DNA from: Solirubrobacterales bacterium
Lineage (GTDB): Bacteria > Actinomycetota > Thermoleophilia > Solirubrobacterales > 70-9
Direction of reading: 5' to 3'
Length of the DNA stretch: 55,969 nucleotides
Assembly (NCBI GenBank): GCA_033856335.1
Contig: JAWVFG010000051.1
Coordinates: forward strand, 1-55,969
Part shown: positions 7,139-52,322 of the stretch, piece after piece
Position numbering within the stretch: the stretch's first letter is position 1
How the letters are laid out: every line of letters begins with the position of its first letter
Notes under the pieces: generated by a model
Told to the model about the DNA's origin: nothing
Seen by the model: only the letters and a program-made list of their open reading frames with translations
Databases searched by the model: none
Made by a program: the position numbers and the translations under genes

Positions 7139-8137
7139 CTAACAGCCCGCCGTCACGTAGCAGCGCAGCGGAGGCTCCTTCGGGACGTGCGGGTAGGCGG
7201 CGACCGTGGCGGCGACATCCGCCACCGATGAGGCCTCGTCCGTGGCGAAGGTCGCGGGGTTGACGCCCGGCATCAGGAGCTGGCGGCAGAGGCCGGTGCC
7301 GATCAGGCGCGATGGGTCGGCGGGCCCGGGATGGCTGAGCGCGTCGATCGCGATCGCGTACGCGACCGGGTCGTAGGTGCCGATCGCGAGGTGGTCGCTG
7401 ACGTCGAGCGGGCAGATCTGCTGGATCGCCACGTTGGTGATCTGCCCACCCCCTCCGTGCAGCGAGCTGCCTTGTCCGGTGATGTTCGGGAAGACGACCT
7501 CGTCCGTCCGCGTGTACGCGGCGGTGTAGGAGATCCCGGGGAAGGTCTCCTGATAGGAGTTGAGCGCCTGGATGAAGTCGGCGTTGTCGCGCTGCTGCCA
7601 GAAGGAAGGGGCGCAGCCGGGGATGCAGGCAGGGACCGAGTCGAGCGTCCCGTGGTTGCTCGGCGACAGCCCGATCTCGTCGTCGACCATGGTCCGCGTG
7701 TCCGGCCAGAACCGAAAGGCCCAGCGCGGCACCATGCCTCCCTGGCTGTGGCCGATGATCGCGATCCGCCGGCCCGCTCGCGCGTACATCGTGCGGATCC
7801 CGTTGACGACGTACTCGGCGGCGGTCTGGATGTCGCCCATGCCGTTGCCCGGCAGGGCAACCACGCACCAGGGGATACCGAGCTTGGTGAGCGCCGGCTC
7901 CCAGTTCCACGAGAAGTCCGACTTCGGGCTGTAGGCCGTTCCCGGCACGAGGAGGACCGGACCGCGCGATCCGGCTGCGAGATTGCCGGCGCATGTGAGG
8001 CTGGCGTCGAGGTCGGCCTGTGGAACGCTCAGCGCCGGGCCGGGCTGGTCGGGCGGCGCGTAGGTGATCGCCGCGGCTGAGGTGGGCACCAGCAGTGCTG
8101 TGCCGATCACCACCAGTGCTGTGAGCGTCCTCTTCAT
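7139..8137 (-). CDS. Secreted lipase, Candida antarctica lipase B (CalB)-like
   Basis: Signal peptide MKRTLTALVVIGTALLVPTSAAA. Blocks LTCAG..PVLLVPGT..NWEP..LGIPWC..GHSQGGMVPRWAFRFWP..VDDEIGLSPSNHGT..FWQQ..TDEVV are colinear with CalB as remembered. Start ATG 8137 follows AAGGAGGG; the track's 8275 start would overlap the upstream paralog. Confidence 0.85.
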   Translation of the reverse strand: MKRTLTALVVIGTALLVPTSAAAITYAPPDQPGPALSVPQADLDASLTCAGNLAAGSRGPVLLVPGTAYSPKSDFSWNWEPALTKLGIPWCVVALPGNGMGDIQTAAEYVVNGIRTMYARAGRRIAIIGHSQGGMVPRWAFRFWPDTRTMVDDEIGLSPSNHGTLDSVPACIPGCAPSFWQQRDNADFIQALNSYQETFPGISYTAAYTRTDEVVFPNITGQGSSLHGGGGQITNVAIQQICPLDVSDHLAIGTYDPVAYAIAIDALSHPGPADPSRLIGTGLCRQLLMPGVNPATFATDEASSVADVAATVAAYPHVPKEPPLRCYVTAGC

Positions 8138-8162
8138 CGTTCGCCCTCCTTGGCGTGTGTCT

Positions 8163-9302
8163 CTAGTGCCTTCGCTTCTTGTGCTTCTTGCAGGAGCGCC
8201 GCTTGCTCTCCGCAGCGCGGTGCTTGCGCTTGTGCTTGCACTTTCGGGACTTCGCGGTGGCCGGGGCTGTGGCACCGGCCGGGCAGCTCGCCGTCACGTA
8301 ACAGGCGAGCGGTGGCTCGGAGGAGACCTGGGGAGCGGTGGCCGTGTTGAGCGCCAGGTCCGCGCCCGCGGAGGCGAGGTCGGTCGGATAGGTCTCCGAA
8401 TTGATCCCGGGCATGAGCTTGAAAGGAGTGCAGATCCCGGGGTCGCCGGCCGCAGCCCGCAGTGGATCGGCAGGCCCGGGATGCTCGAGCGCATCGACCG
8501 CCAGGTCATAGGCGACGTTGTCCTGTGTCCCGATCGCCAGGTGCTCGGAGAGGTCGCCGGGACAGAGGTCCTGGATCGCCACGTTGGTGATGGCGCCGCC
8601 TCCGCCGTGCAGAGACGAGCTGCCGGTGTTGTCGTTGTTCGGCGTGACGACCTCGTCGAAGTGGGTGTAGATCTCGGTGTACGAGATCCCGGGGAAGGTC
8701 TCCTGGTAGGAGTTGAGCGCCTTGATGAAGTCGGCTATGTCGCGCTGCTGCCAGTCGGCGGCCGCGCAGCTGAAGGTGCAGAGGGGATCGGCGCCGGTCG
8801 TCCCGTGGTTGCTGGGGGCGAAGCCGATCTGGTCGTCCACCATCCCTCGCGTATCGGGCCAAAAGCGAAGCGGCCAGCGCGGGAGCATCCCACCCTGGCT
8901 GTGGCCGATGATCGAAATCTTCCGGCCGGCGCGCTGGTACATCGTCCGGATGCCGTTGACGACGTACTCGCCGGCGACCTGGACGTCCCCGAGCGCGTGG
9001 CCGGGGAGCGTCACGGCGCACCAGGAGATCCCGAGCTTGTTGAGCGCCGGCTCCCAGTTCCAGGAGAAGTTGTGCTGCGGTTCGCTGCCGGTCCCGGGCA
9101 CAAGCAGCACCGGCCCGTAGCTGCCGCCGGCCAGGTTGCCGTTGCACTGGAGGCTTGCGTCGAGCTTGCTCTGGGGAACGCTCAGGGGCGGTCCCGGAGT
9201 GTCGACCGGCGCGTAGGTGATCGCCGCGGCGGACGCAGGCACGAGCAGTGACGCAGCCGCAACCGCGCCGATGAGCCCTCTGCCCAGGAGCCCTCTCCTC
9301 AC
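8163..9302 (-). CDS. Secreted CalB-like lipase paralog with a 40-aa polybasic two-Cys C-terminal tail
   Basis: Same blocks as the neighbour (GHSQGGMLPRWPLRFWP, FAPSNHGT). After the shared ...CYVTASC end it continues CPAGATAPATAKSRKCKHKRKHRAAESKRRSCKKHKKRRH. The start is probably GTG 9302 (VRRGLLGRGLIGAVAAASLLVPASAAA); the track start is 9380. Confidence 0.85.
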   Translation of the reverse strand: MRRGLLGRGLIGAVAAASLLVPASAAAITYAPVDTPGPPLSVPQSKLDASLQCNGNLAGGSYGPVLLVPGTGSEPQHNFSWNWEPALNKLGISWCAVTLPGHALGDVQVAGEYVVNGIRTMYQRAGRKISIIGHSQGGMLPRWPLRFWPDTRGMVDDQIGFAPSNHGTTGADPLCTFSCAAADWQQRDIADFIKALNSYQETFPGISYTEIYTHFDEVVTPNNDNTGSSSLHGGGGAITNVAIQDLCPGDLSEHLAIGTQDNVAYDLAVDALEHPGPADPLRAAAGDPGICTPFKLMPGINSETYPTDLASAGADLALNTATAPQVSSEPPLACYVTASCPAGATAPATAKSRKCKHKRKHRAAESKRRSCKKHKKRRH

Positions 9303-23633: not shown

Positions 23634-25118
23634 TCAGAAGCGGTGGTTGCCGCCGCCGCGCGGGCCCTGCTCGTGCAGCGCCTTCGGGTGCCTGCGGCTG
23701 ACCCCGATGATGCCGGCGTTCGCGCTGCTCGCGCTCGGGTCGAGCACGGTGACGTAGGCGACGGAATCGGTCAGCGCGTCGGACCAGAGGACACCCGCCG
23801 AGCGGTTCAGGGTGAACAGGATCCGGCCGGCGCCGTGCCGGTGGAGACCGCGAACCATGAGCCTGCTCCGCAGCGCGTCGGCGCGAACGTAGGCGAAGGA
23901 GTTGCCGTGAACCGAGGGGTCGAAGAGCAGCAACCGGCGCGAGCGCACCAGCGTTCGGTGCTTGTGCGTTCCCATGACCCACTGGACCACCCGGCTGCCC
24001 CGCGGGGTCGCGATCGCATAGAGCAGGACGTTGCCATCGACGGCGGGCGGGCTGAGCTGGGAGGCACCACCCTCGCTCGCCAGGAGAACGGGCGGCGCCG
24101 GCGATGCGGGGTTTGCGATGTATCGGATGTAGATGCCATCGCCGCCGTCCCGGGGGGCGTGATAGGCGAGCCAGGAATCCGAGACCGCGATTGCGTCGGC
24201 GCCGGGGGCGTCAATCTGCGCGATCGGCCCGAGGGTGTTCCGGTCGAGCAGCTGCACCGTGTTCCCGGTCACGGTCGCGACGTAGCGGCCGCCGATCGCC
24301 GGGTGCTTGCCGGGCAGAGGGATCTCGGGGCCGCCGCGACTGATCACGGCCGGCCCGGCAAGCCTCTGGAAGAGCAGGGCATCCGCTGTGGCGGCCGGGT
24401 CGGTGGCACGGGAGACGTTCGTCCCCTTGGCGCCCGCGCTGCCGGGGGCGATGACCAGCGCCACCGCCGCGACGAGGAGCGCCGCCGCATCGCCGCGGCG
24501 CAGCCCCAGGTAGACACCATCCCGCTCGCACATCAGCTCGGTCGCGCGAATGCCGGCGCCACTGCCCGCCAGCGGCGCCAGCGCGACGATCGGGATCGCC
24601 CTGCCGATCCCGAAGGCGGCGCCGAGCAAAAGCCCCAGCGACGGATCGCCGAGGGCCAGGCTGACGCCCGCCAGCGCCCAGACGCCGAACGAGAGGACGA
24701 ACGTGGTGAAGCCGATGCCGAGCAGGACTCCATAGAGGGCGGCGGCCACCGGCATCGGCATGACGCGTCGCCAGTGCTCCGGGAGCTGGCGGCGGATCTG
24801 CGGCACGATCCGCGCCCCTCGAGCCTCGAGGACGGCGGCGAGCAGCGCGATCGCGGCAGCCACCACGTACGCGGCGCGCCCCCCGGCACCATGGAGGAGC
24901 TGGCCGAGCCAGGCCAGCGAGCCAAAGGTGAGGAGGCCCCCGGCGATCGCGCCCGGCAGGAAGGTCGCGCAGGCGGCCGCCGTGATCCGCCGGCCGCCGG
25001 TGTGGCCGGTGGGCCCGATCGTGTCGATCGCCGAGAGCCCGCAGGGAGAGAAGGTGCCGGTCGCCCCGATCAGGAGCGCGGCGGCGGCGAGGGCGAGCTC
25101 GAGCGCTGTCATCGGCAT
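23634..25118 (-). CDS. Fusion protein: CcdA/DsbD-like six-TM domain plus an extracytoplasmic beta-rich domain
   Basis: TM1 carries FSPCGLS, which resembles the CcdA/DsbD SPC motif. About six hydrophobic helices are followed by a ~270-aa soluble region with repeated beta-strand-like segments. ATG 25118 overlaps the stop of the MauA-like gene as TGATG. Confidence 0.7.
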   Translation of the reverse strand: MPMTALELALAAAALLIGATGTFSPCGLSAIDTIGPTGHTGGRRITAAACATFLPGAIAGGLLTFGSLAWLGQLLHGAGGRAAYVVAAAIALLAAVLEARGARIVPQIRRQLPEHWRRVMPMPVAAALYGVLLGIGFTTFVLSFGVWALAGVSLALGDPSLGLLLGAAFGIGRAIPIVALAPLAGSGAGIRATELMCERDGVYLGLRRGDAAALLVAAVALVIAPGSAGAKGTNVSRATDPAATADALLFQRLAGPAVISRGGPEIPLPGKHPAIGGRYVATVTGNTVQLLDRNTLGPIAQIDAPGADAIAVSDSWLAYHAPRDGGDGIYIRYIANPASPAPPVLLASEGGASQLSPPAVDGNVLLYAIATPRGSRVVQWVMGTHKHRTLVRSRRLLLFDPSVHGNSFAYVRADALRSRLMVRGLHRHGAGRILFTLNRSAGVLWSDALTDSVAYVTVLDPSASSANAGIIGVSRRHPKALHEQGPRGGGNHRF

Positions 25119-25693
25119 CAACAGGGCACCTTGGTGTCGTAGTACTGGACGCAGAACACCTTCCGGCCGCGATAGCAGTAGCCCGTGAGCGCGGCGTCGC
25201 CATTGATCCGCGTGTTGCGCGTGGCGCAGCAGTCGCGGAGCTGGCGGACCTTGCCGCCGCAGCAGCGGTACCAGGAGCCGTCGATGTGGGCCCTGAAGCC
25301 GTAGATGTCCCCGGCTCTGTCACAGAGCCGGGTGCGAGGGGCCGGCGGTAGCGGCCGTCCCTCGGCGTCTCGGAGGAGCTGGCCGCCGTCGTCCACGGGC
25401 TGGCCCGCTTCGTTCACCGGCCTGCCGATGTCGTCGATCGCATGTCCGTCGCTCGCGCGCAACGGGAAGCCGCGGGCGTCGATCCGGGGCAGCCCGGTCG
25501 GGTGGGGGCACGACCCCGTCGTGAAGGTGTGTCCGCAGAAGTGGAAGGCCTCGGAGTCTCCGGGCTCGATCAGCGTCCCGACCGTGCGGGCGGCGGTCAG
25601 GGCCACCAGTGCCCCTCCCACGCGCGCCAGGAACCCCCGCCGCGAGGTGTCCCGGGCCAGCGAGTCAGTCAACCGATCCAGGTGCTCAGGCAC
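25118..25693 (-). CDS. Methylamine dehydrogenase light chain (MauA)-like Cys-rich protein with Tat signal
   Basis: GTG 25693 overlaps the end of the upstream gene by 8 nt. Twin-arginine signal SRRGFLARVGGALVALTAA. The mature part has 10 Cys in MauA-like spacing (FHFCGH..GSCPHP...GSWYRCCGG...RDCCA...GYCYRG..VFCVQY...VPC). The 364-aa track ORF (to 26212) is an out-of-frame overlap with the upstream gene. Confidence 0.75.
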   Translation of the reverse strand: MPEHLDRLTDSLARDTSRRGFLARVGGALVALTAARTVGTLIEPGDSEAFHFCGHTFTTGSCPHPTGLPRIDARGFPLRASDGHAIDDIGRPVNEAGQPVDDGGQLLRDAEGRPLPPAPRTRLCDRAGDIYGFRAHIDGSWYRCCGGKVRQLRDCCATRNTRINGDAALTGYCYRGRKVFCVQYYDTKVPC

Positions 25694-26642
25694 CGATCGG
25701 CAACCTCCCGAGCTGCGCCCTCGTCTCGTCCTCCGCCACATTGGCTGTAATGCCCTGGGCGCGCCGGCGCTCCGCGGTCGCCAGCACGCTCTCGAGCTGC
25801 GCGAGGTTGTTGAACGTCCCCTTGGCGAGGACGGTTCCCCGCTCGTCCAGAGTGATCGCGAACGGGCTGCCGGGAATCCCGAGGTCGCGCCAGAGCCCGG
25901 CGTCCGCGACCTCGTCGAATACGCCGACCGCGACCTGCGGATCCTTGCCCACGTTCTCGATGGCGGGCGAGAGCGTCTGGCAGAGGTGGCAGCCCTCGGA
26001 GGTGAAAACGGCCAGCCCGAGCCTCTTCTCGCCCTCCGTGGCGAGACGCCCGGCGAGCGCGGCAGCCCGTGTGCCGACATCGGGACCCTCTCCGGCGATC
26101 TCCAACGCGCCCTGCGTGCCGAGCTGAAGCCGCAGCATTCCGACCTCGCGGGCGAGCGCGAGAACCGCGATCGCCAGGCCGGCACAGGCGAGCAGTGCCA
26201 CGCCGACCGCAATCCCGAGCCACGCGTTCGTGCTCAGCGCAATGGAATCGACCTGCGGGATCAGGGCGAAGCCCGCGGCCAGCCCGAGGTTCCGAAGCAC
26301 GCCGAGCCAGGAGACCTTGGAGCGGGGGCCGAAGCACGCGCAGGGGGCCCCGGCGCGTCCGCGGAGGATGGCGCCGACGGTCATGGCGGCGAACAGAAGC
26401 ATCAACCCGCTCGCGGCATAGGCCGCCGCGTCGGAGCCGAGCACCACCGCGACGGCCAGCGCCAGCTCGAGCGCGATCATCCCCGCCCAGGCGAGAGGCC
26501 GCAGGGGCCCGCCGGCGAAGCCGAAGCTGTCCATCGACGCGATGCTCGCGCGCGGCGACGCCAGCTTCGCGAGCGCGGCGCCCGCGAGCAAGATCCCCAA
26601 CCCGACGCGCAAAATGATCTCCACAGGTCCCTCCGCCCGCAA
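25686..26642 (-). CDS. MauE/DoxX-like membrane domain fused to a thioredoxin-fold (MauD/TlpA-like) domain
   Basis: The N-terminal ~170 aa form 4-5 TM helices of MauE type, with an internal PCACFG motif. The C-terminal soluble domain has CxxC (SEGCHLCQ) and the thioredoxin-like GIPGSPFAITLD. Start is TTG 26642 or GTG 26624. Confidence 0.75.
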   Translation of the reverse strand: MRAEGPVEIILRVGLGILLAGAALAKLASPRASIASMDSFGFAGGPLRPLAWAGMIALELALAVAVVLGSDAAAYAASGLMLLFAAMTVGAILRGRAGAPCACFGPRSKVSWLGVLRNLGLAAGFALIPQVDSIALSTNAWLGIAVGVALLACAGLAIAVLALAREVGMLRLQLGTQGALEIAGEGPDVGTRAAALAGRLATEGEKRLGLAVFTSEGCHLCQTLSPAIENVGKDPQVAVGVFDEVADAGLWRDLGIPGSPFAITLDERGTVLAKGTFNNLAQLESVLATAERRRAQGITANVAEDETRAQLGRLPIGA

Positions 26643-26674: not shown

Positions 26675-27796
26675 TCACGCCTGGGCGCGTGCCCTCTCCT
26701 TGACCCGCTTGACGCAACGGCGGCGCTTCTTCTTGTTGTGAATGCGTTTGCACTTCTTCAGGGCCTTGGCGGGCAGGGTTAGCCCCGAAGCGGGTGGGCT
26801 GCCGGCCCCGAAGATGCCCTCTGCCGGCAGGCCATAGGTGGATTCGAGACTGGAGACGTCCGACTGGATCAGGGAGCGCATCGTTGGGCCGGCGACCCGG
26901 GTGTAGACCCCGGGCGCGTTGGACTCGGCGCAACCGTTGCCCCAGCCGGTGATCCCGACCAGCCGGTAGCCGCCGCTCGCGAGTGGGGCCTGCAGCGGGC
27001 CGCCGCTGTCGCCGTAGCAGGTGTCCACGCCACCGCTGAGATACCCGGCGCAGAGCATCGTGTTCGGATCGAAATCGCTGCCGTAGACGCTGCCGCTGGC
27101 GCAGGTCGAGTCGGAGATCACGTCGACGGTGGCCGCCCGCAGCGTGTCCTGCGTGTTCGCACTCGGTGACTCGCTGGTCGTGCCCCAGCCGCTGATCTGC
27201 TCCGAGCTGCCGTCGTCCCAGAGGGAACCCTCGTCCGTTCCGGCGATCTTGATGGGGGTCTGGCTCGAAGGGGAGGAGAGGACGAGGTAGGCGACGTCGT
27301 AGCGTGGGACGCCGTCGCCCTGGTAGTTGTCGATGTAGTTGGACTGGTAGGAGACCGCCTCAACGGAGGCCTCAGCACTCTGAGGGACGCTCGAGAGGGT
27401 GGAGTAGCCGAGAACCACACTGACGTCATTTGGATCGAGCTTGTCTTTCCCGTCGCCGCCGGGGTCGGTCAGCGAGGTGCAGATCGGTGGGTTTCCGGTA
27501 AGGGCGTTCGGCCCGCAGTCCGGGTCCGTGTCGAACACGCAGTGCGCCGCGGTGACCACGATCCTCGATGTGAGCAATGACCCGCCGCAGAATTGGCGCT
27601 GGTGGGCATTGCCGGAGTCCTTTGCGGACGAGAGCACGACCGCTGCCTGCCACGGGTACTGGGAGATGGACGCCGTGGAACCACCGACGATCCTGGGCTG
27701 CACCGCTCCGTCGCTCTGCGCGCCCGCGGTGGCGGGCGCAAGCAGGGCAAGAGCCGCTGCCCCCCCGAGCAGGACCAGTCGAGGCCGCCTCCTCAT
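26675..27796 (-). CDS. Secreted trypsin-like serine protease (S1) with a polybasic two-Cys C-terminal tail
   Basis: Signal peptide, RIVGG activation site, catalytic motifs TAAHC and GDSGGPL. The C-terminus is PAKALKKCKRIHNKKKRRRCVKRVKERARAQA. Confidence 0.9.
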   Translation of the reverse strand: MRRRPRLVLLGGAAALALLAPATAGAQSDGAVQPRIVGGSTASISQYPWQAAVVLSSAKDSGNAHQRQFCGGSLLTSRIVVTAAHCVFDTDPDCGPNALTGNPPICTSLTDPGGDGKDKLDPNDVSVVLGYSTLSSVPQSAEASVEAVSYQSNYIDNYQGDGVPRYDVAYLVLSSPSSQTPIKIAGTDEGSLWDDGSSEQISGWGTTSESPSANTQDTLRAATVDVISDSTCASGSVYGSDFDPNTMLCAGYLSGGVDTCYGDSGGPLQAPLASGGYRLVGITGWGNGCAESNAPGVYTRVAGPTMRSLIQSDVSSLESTYGLPAEGIFGAGSPPASGLTLPAKALKKCKRIHNKKKRRRCVKRVKERARAQA

Positions 27797-41311: not shown

Positions 41312-42655
41312 CTAGGGGTTGTCGCCCCCCACTCGCTGCTTCTTTTTCCGCTTCTTCTTGCAGTGCTTCTTCTTGTGCTTCTTCTTCGCGCTCGAGGCGC
41401 GATGTTTCTTGTGGCGCTTGTGCTTCTTGCACTTCTTCTTGGCGGAAGGCGTGGCCGGGCAGGCCGGCGGCACCGACGCCGGGGTCGATCCGACGATCTT
41501 GTCGACGGCGTTGCCGTTCGTGACGTAGAGCTCGCAGCTCGAATCCTCGCCGAACGAGTGTGGACGGTCGAGCGCGCCCGGAGCGCTCTCGGCGCGGTCG
41601 CCGCCCGCCAGGGGAATGCCGAGCTGTATCGAGCGCAGCTCTCCCTGGCAGAGGTCGGTGTAGACGTAGCGCCCGACGAGCTCGGGTATCTGGGTGCCCC
41701 GGTAGACGTAGCCGCCGATGATCGCGCAGCCGAAGGCCTGGCCGCCGCCGGGATCGGAATGCGGGTAATCGAAGACCGGATCGGTGAAGCTGCCGCCGCA
41801 AGAGGTCGGTCCGGCGATGGATCCTTCGCGGCACGGCCAGCCGAAGTTGGCTCCCCGCCCGAGGCCGGTGGACACCGGGGCGACGTCGATCTCCTCCCGC
41901 TCGGTCTCGCCGACGTCGGCGATCACGAGGTCGCCGGTGAGGTGGTCGAAGGAAAAGCGCCACGGATTTCGCAACCCGAGGCTCCAGATCTCAGGGGCGG
42001 GGCTGGCGAGGAAGGGATTCGAATCGGGGATGCCGTGAGCACCCGCCCCGATGCCATGGGGGTCGATCCGCAGGATCTTGCCGAGCGGATTCTCGAGGGT
42101 CCTGGCATTGTCGCCGTTAAGCGCGTCCCCCACGGAGATGTAGAGCAGCCCGTCCTTGCCGAACTGCAGCTGGCCGCCGTTGTGAAGCGGCGCGCTGGTG
42201 TGGTTGATCGTCATCACCGGCCGGCGGCTTGCGGGGTCGGCGACGTTGGGATTCGAGGAGACGTGGTACTCGTCCACGTGGATGTCGCCGTGAGCGGCGC
42301 CGCCCGTCCCGTTGTCCACGAAATCGACGTAGAAGAGCCCGTTGCTCGCGTAGTTCGGGTCGAACGCAATGGAGTTGAAGCCGCGCTCCCCGTTCGTGCT
42401 GTCAACCATGCCGTGGATGTCCAGGAACTGGCTGATGACACCGTCGTGGACCACCTGGACGTAGCCGGGGCGCTCGACGACGAACAGCCGCGAGTCGCCG
42501 GGTGGCGAGGTCATGAAGTTCGGCTGGTTGAAGTCCCCGATCGGCTGCAGGCCGAGAGCGCCGGCGCGCGGCGCCGCCGCTAGCACCCCAAGCAGGCACC
42601 CCGCCAACAGAGCGCTCCGCACCCGCGCTCTCATCCGCCCAACATCAACTCCCAT
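41312..42655 (-). CDS. Secreted PQQ-dependent sugar (glucose/sorbosone) dehydrogenase-like beta-propeller with a polybasic two-Cys C-terminal tail
   Basis: Blocks GERGFNSIAFDP, HNGGQLQFGKDGLLYISVGD, LGKILRIDP, IWSLGLRNPWRFSFD and GANFGWP. The C-terminus is CPATPSAKKKCKKHKRHKKHRASSAKKKHKKKHCKKKRKKKQRVGGDNP. Confidence 0.85.
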   Translation of the reverse strand: MGVDVGRMRARVRSALLAGCLLGVLAAAPRAGALGLQPIGDFNQPNFMTSPPGDSRLFVVERPGYVQVVHDGVISQFLDIHGMVDSTNGERGFNSIAFDPNYASNGLFYVDFVDNGTGGAAHGDIHVDEYHVSSNPNVADPASRRPVMTINHTSAPLHNGGQLQFGKDGLLYISVGDALNGDNARTLENPLGKILRIDPHGIGAGAHGIPDSNPFLASPAPEIWSLGLRNPWRFSFDHLTGDLVIADVGETEREEIDVAPVSTGLGRGANFGWPCREGSIAGPTSCGGSFTDPVFDYPHSDPGGGQAFGCAIIGGYVYRGTQIPELVGRYVYTDLCQGELRSIQLGIPLAGGDRAESAPGALDRPHSFGEDSSCELYVTNGNAVDKIVGSTPASVPPACPATPSAKKKCKKHKRHKKHRASSAKKKHKKKHCKKKRKKKQRVGGDNP

Positions 42656-51038: not shown

Positions 51039-52322
51039 CTACTTCCCGGTGCGGAGCTTGAGCTTCTTCGTCGCGGCCAGCCCGCCGTCCGGCGTGTAGC
51101 TCACGCGGACCTTGAGCTTGCCCTTCTGGGCGAGGAGCGCCGAGCCGGACTTGGTCAGCTTGACCTTGACGACGATCGTGCCGGGGCCGCCGTGCACGCT
51201 CGTCGTCTTGACGAGCTTCGGCTTCTTCTTCTTCTTCTTCTTGGCGGACGACGCGGCCTTGCTGCTGACGTCACTGACGCTGCCGGTCCCCTCGTTCGTC
51301 ACCGTGAAGATCACCTTTCTGCCCTTGACCTTCGCGGTGAAGGCGTTGGACGGCACACTCAAGACCTCGGCGCTCTGCAGAGCACTACCGTCGTAGCCCC
51401 CGGCAACCAGCGCCCTGCCATCCGGGAGGGCGGCCCCGGCGGCCTCCTCGCGCTTGCCGGCGAGGCTGCCGACCCCAGCCGAGCTGAACGAGTTCGTGGT
51501 CGGGTCGAAGATCTCGGCACTTGTGACGTAGTTGTTGCTGTCATAGCCCCCAGCAATCAACGCGCGCCCGCCGGGCAGCGAGGCGGCAGCCGGCGCGTAG
51601 CGGAAGATCGAGAGCGATCCAACGGAGCTGAAGGTGGCACTCGGCGGATTGAAGACATTCGCCGAGGAGAAGTAGATGCCCGGTCCGCTGTTGTCGTAGC
51701 CGCCCGCGACCAACACACGGCCACCGGAGACCACAGCGCCACCGAGCCCGAACGCGGCCGCGGGAAGCGGCGGCCCGGCACTGAACGTGTTCGTATTGGG
51801 ATCGAAGATCTCGGTGCTGCTCAGATTGGCGGAGCTGTTGACCCCCCCTGCGACGAGAATCCTGCCGTCAGGAAGCGGCGCTGCAGCCGCGAGCTCTCGC
51901 CGCGTTGCCATCGAGCCGACCGGCGAGAACGTCCCGGTGCTGGGATTGAAGACCTCGGCGCTCGTCACGTCGGTGGTGTTGTTGTACCCCCCGGCCACGA
52001 GCACCCGACCGTCCGGCAGCGCTGCGACCGCCGGCCCGTAGCGAATGCTGTTCATCGTTCCAACGCCGGAGGCGCTGAACGTATTCGTCGACGGGTTGAA
52101 GATCTCGGCGCTATTGAGACTGTTGGTGCCGTCGTACCCGCCGGCGATCAGAATCCGCCCGTCCGGAAGCGGCGCCGCGCCCGGGGCGTCGCGCTTCGTC
52201 GTCATGTTCCCCACCGGGGAGAAGGTGACCGGGTTGAGCGCGCTGGCGGCGGTAGGCGCAACCAGAATCGCCGCGCCGATCCCGATGCACAACATCGTTG
52301 TGGTGATCTTGCGCCTGCTCAA
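51039..52322 (-). CDS. Secreted six-bladed Kelch-repeat protein with a C-terminal Lys-rich beta domain
   Basis: Signal peptide, then six repeats of (A)PLPDGR(I/V)L(I/V)AGGYD...SAE(I/V)F(N/D)P.T..FS, then a K7 run and a Lys-rich ~70-aa terminal segment. Confidence 0.85.
   Translation of the reverse strand: MSRRKITTTMLCIGIGAAILVAPTAASALNPVTFSPVGNMTTKRDAPGAAPLPDGRILIAGGYDGTNSLNSAEIFNPSTNTFSASGVGTMNSIRYGPAVAALPDGRVLVAGGYNNTTDVTSAEVFNPSTGTFSPVGSMATRRELAAAAPLPDGRILVAGGVNSSANLSSTEIFDPNTNTFSAGPPLPAAAFGLGGAVVSGGRVLVAGGYDNSGPGIYFSSANVFNPPSATFSSVGSLSIFRYAPAAASLPGGRALIAGGYDSNNYVTSAEIFDPTTNSFSSAGVGSLAGKREEAAGAALPDGRALVAGGYDGSALQSAEVLSVPSNAFTAKVKGRKVIFTVTNEGTGSVSDVSSKAASSAKKKKKKKPKLVKTTSVHGGPGTIVVKVKLTKSGSALLAQKGKLKVRVSYTPDGGLAATKKLKLRTGK

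Follow-up and report, generated by a model that had tools for sequence, protein, structure and literature searches.

A polybasic two-cysteine module on exported proteins of Solirubrobacterales and its possible role in surface retention

Three exported enzymes with polybasic two-cysteine tails

We analyzed a 55,969-nucleotide stretch of DNA from a Solirubrobacterales bacterium (contig JAWVFG010000051.1 of assembly GCA_033856335.1; hereafter the window), in which three exported enzymes end in a lysine-rich tail with two cysteines, referred to below as the module. Solirubrobacterales belong to the class Thermoleophilia of the Actinomycetota and are among the most abundant and least studied soil Actinomycetota. 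One of the three enzymes is a secreted lipase of the class-2/CalB-like alpha/beta hydrolase type (Pfam Lipase_2/Abhydrolase_6), located at 8163..9302 on the minus strand, whose nearest homologs are annotated as Solirubrobacterales. Its likely start is the GTG at 9302, and the longest open reading frame (ORF) reaches 9380. The segment 8163..8285 on the minus strand is translated as CPAGATAPATAKSRKCKHKRKHRAAESKRRSCKKHKKRRH, followed by a TAG stop codon. The leading cysteine of this segment is the final residue of the lipase domain (CYVTASC). It is followed by a ten-residue Ala/Pro/Thr/Gly linker, PAGATAPATA (8253..8282, minus strand), which joins the lipase domain to the module, and then by the polybasic core KSRKCKHKRKHRAAESKRRSCKKHKKRRH (8166..8252, minus strand), which has 29 residues, a net charge of +16 and cysteine codons at 8238..8240 and 8190..8192. 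All lysine codons in this tail are AAG and all histidine codons are CAC, as expected at a genome GC content of about 69%.

Immediately downstream lies a tandem lipase paralog without the module (7139..8137, minus strand), which starts with MKRTLTAL and ends with CYVTAGC followed by the stop codon, exactly where the tail starts in the tailed lipase. The translation thus bears out the preliminary description, according to which only the second of the two lipases continues past CYVTA[GS]C. The spacer between the stop of the tailed lipase and the start of the untailed paralog (8138..8162) contains a GGAGGG ribosome-binding site. The two genes are probably co-transcribed, because this spacer is only 25 nucleotides long and carries GGAGGG. 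The same pair was found in the same synteny at an ortholog locus of 76% identity (L118), with an M50 peptidase gene upstream and, further along, the genes for SmpB, RNase R, an S41 peptidase and FtsX. The untailed copy there terminates in CYVTADCP and a stop codon. The presence or absence of the module is therefore a stable property of each lipase paralog across species, and the conserved pair of tailed and untailed lipases provides a ready-made natural experiment.

The other two tailed enzymes, both assigned by Pfam and both exported, are also encoded on the minus strand. The S1 (trypsin-family) protease at 26675..27796 ends with PAKALKKCKRIHNKKKRRRCVKRVKERARAQA (26678..26773), a short C-x11-C version with its cysteines at 26750..26752 and 26714..26716. 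The PQQ-type glucose/sorbosone dehydrogenase (PQQ/GSDH) at 41312..42655 ends with PSAKKKCKKHKRHKKHRASSAKKKHKKKHCKKKRKKKQRVGGDNP (41315..41449; net charge +23), with its cysteines at 41429..41431 and 41360..41362, and a GSDH ortholog in another genome (L041) bears a like tail. The three tails on exported enzymes are as previously described. The entry motif proposed for all of them, A-K-x(1,2)-[KR]-K-C-K, holds only in part, with no strict fit in the PQQ/GSDH tail (SAKKKCKK), and the run of K, R and H between the cysteines is not pure, being interrupted by a conserved island of small residues (AAES or ASSA). The three enzymes, which are 3 of about 45-50 genes in the window, have the highest C-terminal lysine content of all window ORFs. 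DNA patterns for K-C-K(-K)...C-K-K gave no match in 100 dinucleotide-preserving shuffles of the window.

Conservation, distribution and composition of the module

The tail is retained in orthologs of both the lipase and the protease. About 105 of 120 lipase homologs (66-99% identity) carry a tail of the same architecture, and about 10 of the 120 end in a short basic stub only (e.g., CPKKRKH). In an alignment of 38 lipase tails, with the consensus AKCKK..KR.HRA..SK.R.CKK..K, both cysteines are invariant and the central alanine and two lysines are nearly so. Within the lipase family, the catalytic domain has a pairwise identity of 0.76, the linker one of 0.29 and the tail one of 0.51, and that of the tail rises to 0.80 when K, R and H are merged, i.e., at the level of charge class. 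All 120 S1 protease homologs (63-100% identity) have the tail, with a cysteine spacing of 11 in 116 of them and the motif [AP]-[LF]-K-K-C-K-R-I-H-x-[RK]-K-K-R-R-R-C-[VI]-K-[RK]-[VA]-K; here the tail core (0.70) is as conserved as the catalytic domain (0.72), and the linker is less so (0.49). The retention and conservation of the module in lipase and S1 orthologs show that it is under purifying selection.

We further scanned one genome per GTDB species with the DNA pattern AAGTGCAAGAAG-N{33,60}-TGCAAGAAG, which yielded at least 117 loci. Among the matches listed, 75 of 117 loci are from Solirubrobacterales metagenome-assembled genomes (MAGs) of many different bins, 3 are labelled just "Actinomycetota bacterium", 1 is from Thermomicrobiales and has a related four-cysteine version, and 38 are unrelated sequences. 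It is evident that, among these matches, the module is nearly confined to Solirubrobacterales MAGs, and no cultured genus was found among the carriers. At least 83 ORFs within the Solirubrobacterales loci listed contain the module, so that, with orthologs of the window proteins also bearing it, the module is not confined to three genes. A rough extrapolation from the non-seed copies and from the window (3 in 56 kb) gives a density of about one carrier per 20-60 kb. Profile searches with the tails recovered little: 14 weak fragment matches among 5.8 billion proteins, with the tail on other domain types, and a single match at E <= 1e-3 in an exhaustive search of 1.84 billion representatives. HMMER gives no measure of the abundance of the module, which is too short and too biased in composition for such searches.

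The unrelated matches include two kinds. Those from Clostridia and other gut MAGs have a zinc-ribbon-like CxxC...CxxC motif (PKCKKG...VCKKCG), and those from Verrucomicrobiota (L019, L034, L065, L075, L076, L079, L080, L084, L094 and L097) are acidic cysteine repeats. The latter, found in Luteolibacter and Akkermansiaceae, are tandem repeats of about 19-24 residues (e.g., CDKCKKGDKKEEGTLAE) that match the pattern by chance; we know of no function for them. In the Thermomicrobiales (Chloroflexota) MAG, a four-cysteine polybasic stretch, KKKCKKRCKNKNTAKKRRKCRKRCKK, directly follows the signal peptide and precedes a Ser/Pro/Thr linker (L036:4018-4563, minus strand); this stretch may represent a relative of the module, outside Actinomycetota, that arose by convergence or by transfer. 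At another locus (L100:2300-6200, plus strand), six tandem matches are spaced about 750 bp apart, one of them out of frame, and their sequences point to an array of short genes that each end in a Thr/Pro-rich linker and the module (...KKCKKKKKSGRTAAASACKKKKRK).

The module has a mean length of 27 residues and a mean net charge of +17.5, and is typically of about 25-35 residues and about +12 to +25. It is composed of 57% K, 9% R, 6% H, 8% C and 10% A, against a background of 2.8% K and 8.8% R. Because lysine makes up 57% of the module and only 2.8% of the background, module lysine is selected against the mutational bias of the genome. The spacing of the cysteines ranges from 10 to 22 in the sampled carriers, with a mode of 14-16, and the usual consensus in Solirubrobacterales loci is KKKCKK[HK]KKKH(R)SA[EA]SAKKK(K)CKKKKK. 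At least three subtypes can be recognized: a long subtype, C-x13-20-C, with a central A-x-x-S-A island, to which the lipase and PQQ tails belong; a short subtype, C-x9-10-C (e.g., KCKKGKxLKxGKC[VL]RK); and the S1 subtype, C-x11-C, the only one with conserved I/V positions. Hydrophobic and aromatic residues amount to about 2% in the common subtype, and histidine is conserved at some positions in two subtypes, that of the lipase (H-[RH]-A) and that of the S1 protease (CKRIH). Pro, Thr and Ala make up 26%, 15% and 15% of the 16 residues preceding C-terminal modules, compared with 6%, 5% and 12% of the background. Duplicated or extended modules with three or more cysteines (e.g., KKKCKKKRRRAAGAKKKCKKKRRRAAGAKKKCKK) occur at L073:407-1357 and L021:6006-7085 (both plus strand), and these copies suggest that the half-module is repeatable.

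Carriers of the module are exported proteins of many kinds. The Pfam families matched by 80 carriers number at least 30 and are without exception of extracytoplasmic types, which together with the retention of the tail in lipase and S1 orthologs agrees with the portability that had been proposed from the window. The enzyme families include trypsin, GDPD, GSDH, PLC-type phosphoesterase, purple acid phosphatase/metallophos, gamma-glutamyltranspeptidase (GGT), PAP2 and Vgb lyase; the others are LamG, Ig-like, He_PIG, FG-GAP and the adhesin-like beta-helix/PMP repeats, as well as DUF5122 and NHL propellers and the P-domain. Hydrolases acting on phosphorus compounds or lipids are well represented (three GDPD, two PLC-type phosphoesterases, two purple acid phosphatases, PAP2 and the lipase), and proteases are also found. 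A signal-peptide-like N-terminus is present in 41 of 44 complete carriers, but in only 139 of 413 other ORFs (odds ratio 27, P = 5e-15), so the expected enrichment among signal-peptide proteins is indeed seen; at least two of the three carriers without one resemble frameshift fragments in long-read MAGs, and the motif was not found on cytoplasmic proteins.

The strictly C-terminal location given in the preliminary description does not hold. In about 80% of the module copies, no more than 25 residues separate the end of the module from the stop codon, whereas about a dozen (~15%), one of them on a GGT, directly follow a predicted AxA cleavage site (e.g., at L001, L005, L029, L044, L048, L060 and L101), with the layout AxA|AKKKKCKK...CKKK, a Pro-rich linker and then the domain. 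Interdomain copies were found at L016 and L069; the N-terminal domain of a purple acid phosphatase is separated from its metallophosphatase domain by such a copy. In the N-terminal copies, the cysteine is Lys-flanked and lies 3-6 residues past the predicted AxA site; none of these copies has a lipobox ([LVI][ASTVI][GAS]C) with its cysteine at mature position +1, and none of the true lipobox proteins in the sample carries the module. A possible mutual exclusivity between the module and lipoprotein anchors was dropped, as the numbers are too small and the lipobox expression falsely matches signal-peptide h-regions.

Cysteine counts and charges of the carriers are also distinctive. Mature carriers have an even number of cysteines in 35 of 41 cases, whereas other cysteine-containing signal-peptide-like ORFs are divided into 54 even and 59 odd; the even counts fit disulfide pairing. 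The passenger domains are acidic in 41 of 41 carriers, with a mean net charge of -20, compared with an average of -3.6 in other secreted-like ORFs, and in the three window proteins the charges of domain and tail nearly cancel (-18/+16, -20/+15 and -23/+23). In an AlphaFold2 (AF2) model of the full-length lipase, the domain has a predicted local distance difference test score (pLDDT) above 90 and the tail is a coil with a pLDDT below 40. The tail modelled alone forms one continuous helix with a pLDDT of 71. No stable autonomous fold is predicted for the module.

Relation to known sorting signals and surface anchors

The preliminary description did not recognize the tails as any named sorting signal, and wider searches agree. 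None of the Pfam models matches the module, and a scan of the tails against NCBIfam (E <= 1) gave no match, including none to PEP-CTERM, GlyGly-CTERM or PGF-CTERM-type signals. There is no LPXTG-like pentapeptide in the three window tails and no LPXTG-type C-terminus in 506 ORFs from related loci, and no ORF containing the sortase motif TLxTC was found in about 700 kb of sampled loci. The tails have no hydrophobic membrane-spanning segment, and their linkers are short and rich in Pro, Thr, Ala and Gly. No LysM, SLH, GW, CWB, WxL or PG_binding domain was matched by Pfam in the window proteins or in 80 carriers. Sequence searches of the PDB returned nothing significant, the S1-type tail matching an alpha-hairpinin derivative (7QXJ) at E = 1.7, and full-text searches found no description of the module in the literature.

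Several known systems share some features with the module. Sortase (LPXTG) and exosortase/rhombosortase signals are likewise lineage-shared C-terminal extensions of secreted proteins that end in a basic cluster; the module differs in having no signature motif and no hydrophobic helix, and in its N-terminal and internal copies. The non-covalent anchors of Gram-positive bacteria (LysM, SLH, GW/SH3_8, CWB1/CWB2 and WxL) are, like the module, portable and flexibly linked to unrelated exported proteins at either terminus. Their retention of proteins on the envelope is non-covalent, and the same is presumed for the module, of which they would be the functional analogue. However, these anchors are folded domains of 40-80 or more residues that are recognizable by hidden Markov models (HMMs) and bind specific glycan or teichoic acid structures, whereas the module has about 27 residues, is about 70% K/R/H and is predicted to be disordered.

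Among lysine-rich termini, the C-terminal domain of HBHA and the Lys/Ala/Pro-rich tails of Hlp, Ku and TopA are also actinobacterial, terminal and rich in lysine despite high GC. The lysine-rich C-terminal domain of mycobacterial HBHA binds heparan sulfate. The lysine-rich tails of Ku and TopA bind a polyanion, DNA, electrostatically (PMC3553676, PMC5714199). All of these are cysteine-free PAKKA-type repeats on cytoplasmic or leaderless proteins, whereas the module has two invariant cysteines and no repeat unit, and its carriers have signal peptides. In lactoferricin, bactenecin, thanatin, the "Rana box" and alpha-hairpinins, two cysteines bracket a cationic stretch with basic flanks, as in the module. 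These disulfide-looped peptides bind anionic surfaces, but they are amphipathic, contain aromatic residues, and are free and eukaryotic; the module is nearly pure lysine and would stay fused to enzymes, its disulfide is putative, and no homology was found. K-Ras4B and GBP1 (polybasic motif plus CaaX) also have a polybasic stretch beside a terminal cysteine, and these termini bind anionic lipid or lipopolysaccharide surfaces (PMC7240152, PMC7327485). They are eukaryotic and cytosolic and their CaaX cysteine is prenylated, whereas the module is extracytoplasmic and has no CaaX box. Judged by its sequence, the module is a new family of unusual design that belongs to none of the families compared here.

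A candidate surface-retention tag and its alternatives

We propose that the module is a lineage-specific, portable, non-covalent polycationic surface-retention tag of Solirubrobacterales, a function that we infer and that we regard as having an even chance of being correct. Joined by a linker rich in Pro, Thr and Ala to the C-terminal end of a Sec-exported protein, and in fewer cases to its mature N-terminus or at an interdomain site, the module would be kept on the protein after export and removal of the signal peptide. Disordered when alone, it would bind polyanions of the producer's own envelope through multivalent electrostatics, the candidates being anionic phospholipids, lipoglycans and wall glycopolymers. 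The surface of a cell presumed to have no outer membrane would thereby hold its hydrolases, periplasmic-type redox enzymes and adhesin-like proteins, rather than lose them by diffusion, with the acidic passenger domain repelled outward. Exported proteins of actinobacteria form disulfides, and the cysteine pair would presumably be oxidized after export, the putative disulfide constraining or protecting the module. The untailed tandem lipase paralog would be the freely diffusing version.

This proposal rests on several observations together: the module is found only on exported proteins, at either end of them, behind Pro/Thr linkers in the C-terminal copies, with lysines under selection and no transmembrane segment or cleavage motif, and its carriers include adhesin-like and periplasmic-type proteins. 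Adhesin-like proteins work only when attached to the cell, and periplasmic-type enzymes (GSDH, GGT, GlpQ-like GDPD) are lost from a single-membrane cell unless anchored. The occurrence of the module at the C-terminus, at the N-terminus and between domains speaks for a module that binds autonomously rather than for a sorting signal cleaved off the C-terminus; of the "sorting or retention tag" first suggested, the sorting half is thus disfavored and the retention or binding half favored.

A number of points weigh against the proposal. The strict seed pattern biases the carrier sample to the KCKK...CKK subtype and to cysteine-containing tails, and the gene and signal-peptide calls are crude heuristics, uniformly applied. 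The two AF2 predictions are inconsistent on the structure of the tail, and a continuous helix as modelled would hold the two cysteines too far apart for an intramolecular disulfide. The S1 subtype (CKRIH...RRRC[VI]K) is highly conserved in sequence, suggestive of a partner more specific than bulk charge. We found nothing in the literature on the composition of the Solirubrobacterales envelope. Furthermore, many carriers are phosphoesterases, which fits the targeting of substrates as well as it fits self-anchoring.

The main rival is that the tail immobilizes or targets exoenzymes to external polyanions, such as clay or humic surfaces, matrix extracellular DNA or remnants of dead cells that are rich in phosphate (teichoic acids, phospholipids, nucleic acids). 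The physics would be identical to that of self-anchoring, from which this explanation is computationally inseparable, hydrolases that scavenge phosphorus and lipids are abundant among the carriers, and the source MAGs are presumably of soil origin. Nevertheless, we consider it unlikely, as adhesin-like, Ig-like and propeller carriers and the periplasmic-type enzymes linked to the respiratory chain (GSDH, GGT) would gain nothing from binding to arbitrary particles. The invariance of the two cysteines, the strong preference for lysine over arginine, the conservation of the S1 subtype at the level of its catalytic domain and the absence of classical sortase-type signals from the 506 sampled ORFs could instead be explained if the module were the recognition element of a lineage-specific sorting or attachment system, with cysteine and/or lysine serving covalent capture (disulfide, thioether or isopeptide) or a dedicated enzyme cleaving the tail. 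Such a system is quite improbable in our view: the module is also N-terminal and internal, unlike all C-terminal sorting signals known to us, no transmembrane segment would keep the substrate at the membrane, the junction of linker and module has no conserved cleavage motif, and no partner gene was found, the thioredoxin/MauE gene beside the S1 protease looking like part of a methylamine dehydrogenase cluster. A related reading, in which the module would be the address tag of a Solirubrobacterales-specific display system that replaces sortase/LPXTG and captures the protein covalently, by cysteine and/or lysine and from either protein end, on a dedicated envelope receptor or polymer, is likewise given only a small probability.

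The remaining alternatives are weaker still. The nearly cancelling charges of domain and tail in the three window proteins and the acidity of all carrier passenger domains would be expected if the module acted intramolecularly, neutralizing or masking the acidic passenger for the sake of solubility, folding, wall passage or auto-inhibition. However, the charges of domain and module are uncorrelated across carriers (rho = -0.18, P = 0.27) and within lipases (rho = -0.07), lipases with just 2-5 terminal positive charges are equally acidic, the AF2 model shows no docking of the tail on the domain, and a docking segment would need no long flexible Pro/Thr linker. Charge compensation, which the window proteins had prompted us to consider, was rejected on the lack of correlation and the equal acidity of the short-tailed lipases, and we consider an intramolecular role in general very unlikely. 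That the carriers include a lipase and proteases, and that the arrangement of basic flank, cysteine, cationic loop, cysteine and basic flank resembles peptides of the lactoferricin and bactenecin types as well as cationic tails known from some endolysins, might indicate a cationic warhead steering hydrolases to the anionic surfaces of competitors, or a released antimicrobial disulfide-looped peptide. We give this very little credence: membrane-active peptides require hydrophobic or aromatic residues, which make up only about 2% of the common subtype, most carriers (dehydrogenase, GGT, phosphatases, adhesin-like proteins) are no weapons, and no immunity genes were noticed. A metal-binding element of the Cys2His type would account for the 6% histidine and its conservation at some lipase and S1 positions, but many copies are free of histidine (e.g., KKKCKKKKKKRAAVAKKKCKKRKK), and this explanation is close to negligible. 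So is functionless low-complexity drift, to which a short, compositionally biased segment barely detected by HMM profiles might be ascribed: the cysteine positions, spacing and charge class are kept in more than 200 orthologs despite the mutational bias.

If the module does serve as a surface-retention tag, and if its density in the window held genome-wide, a tag invisible to current annotation would be carried by a few percent of the genes and by much of the secretome. Recognition of the tag would tell surface-kept from released enzymes in the slow-growing Solirubrobacterales. The module would also extend the short list of bacterial surface-retention devices and provide a very small (~30 amino acids) natural polycationic immobilization tag.

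Two other regions of the window are worth describing. Directly downstream of the tailed S1 protease, three ORFs are located at 23634..26642 on the minus strand: a MauE-like membrane protein with a thioredoxin-like domain (CHLC) fused to it, a Tat-signal, cysteine-rich protein that by eye is like the methylamine dehydrogenase light chain, and a large ORF. The adjacency of trypsin and MauE was seen again on another contig (L121:1249-2755). The gene for the MauE and thioredoxin-like protein was considered as a tail-processing oxidoreductase and rejected, since by eye, and by its MauE Pfam match, it looks like part of a methylamine dehydrogenase-like cluster. The second region encodes a secreted Kelch-repeat propeller protein (51039..52322, minus strand) with a cysteine-free run of seven lysines, SSAKKKKKKKPK, which joins the propeller to a lysine-rich C-terminal beta-type domain ending in KKLKLRTGK. 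This polylysine element is distinct from the two-cysteine module.

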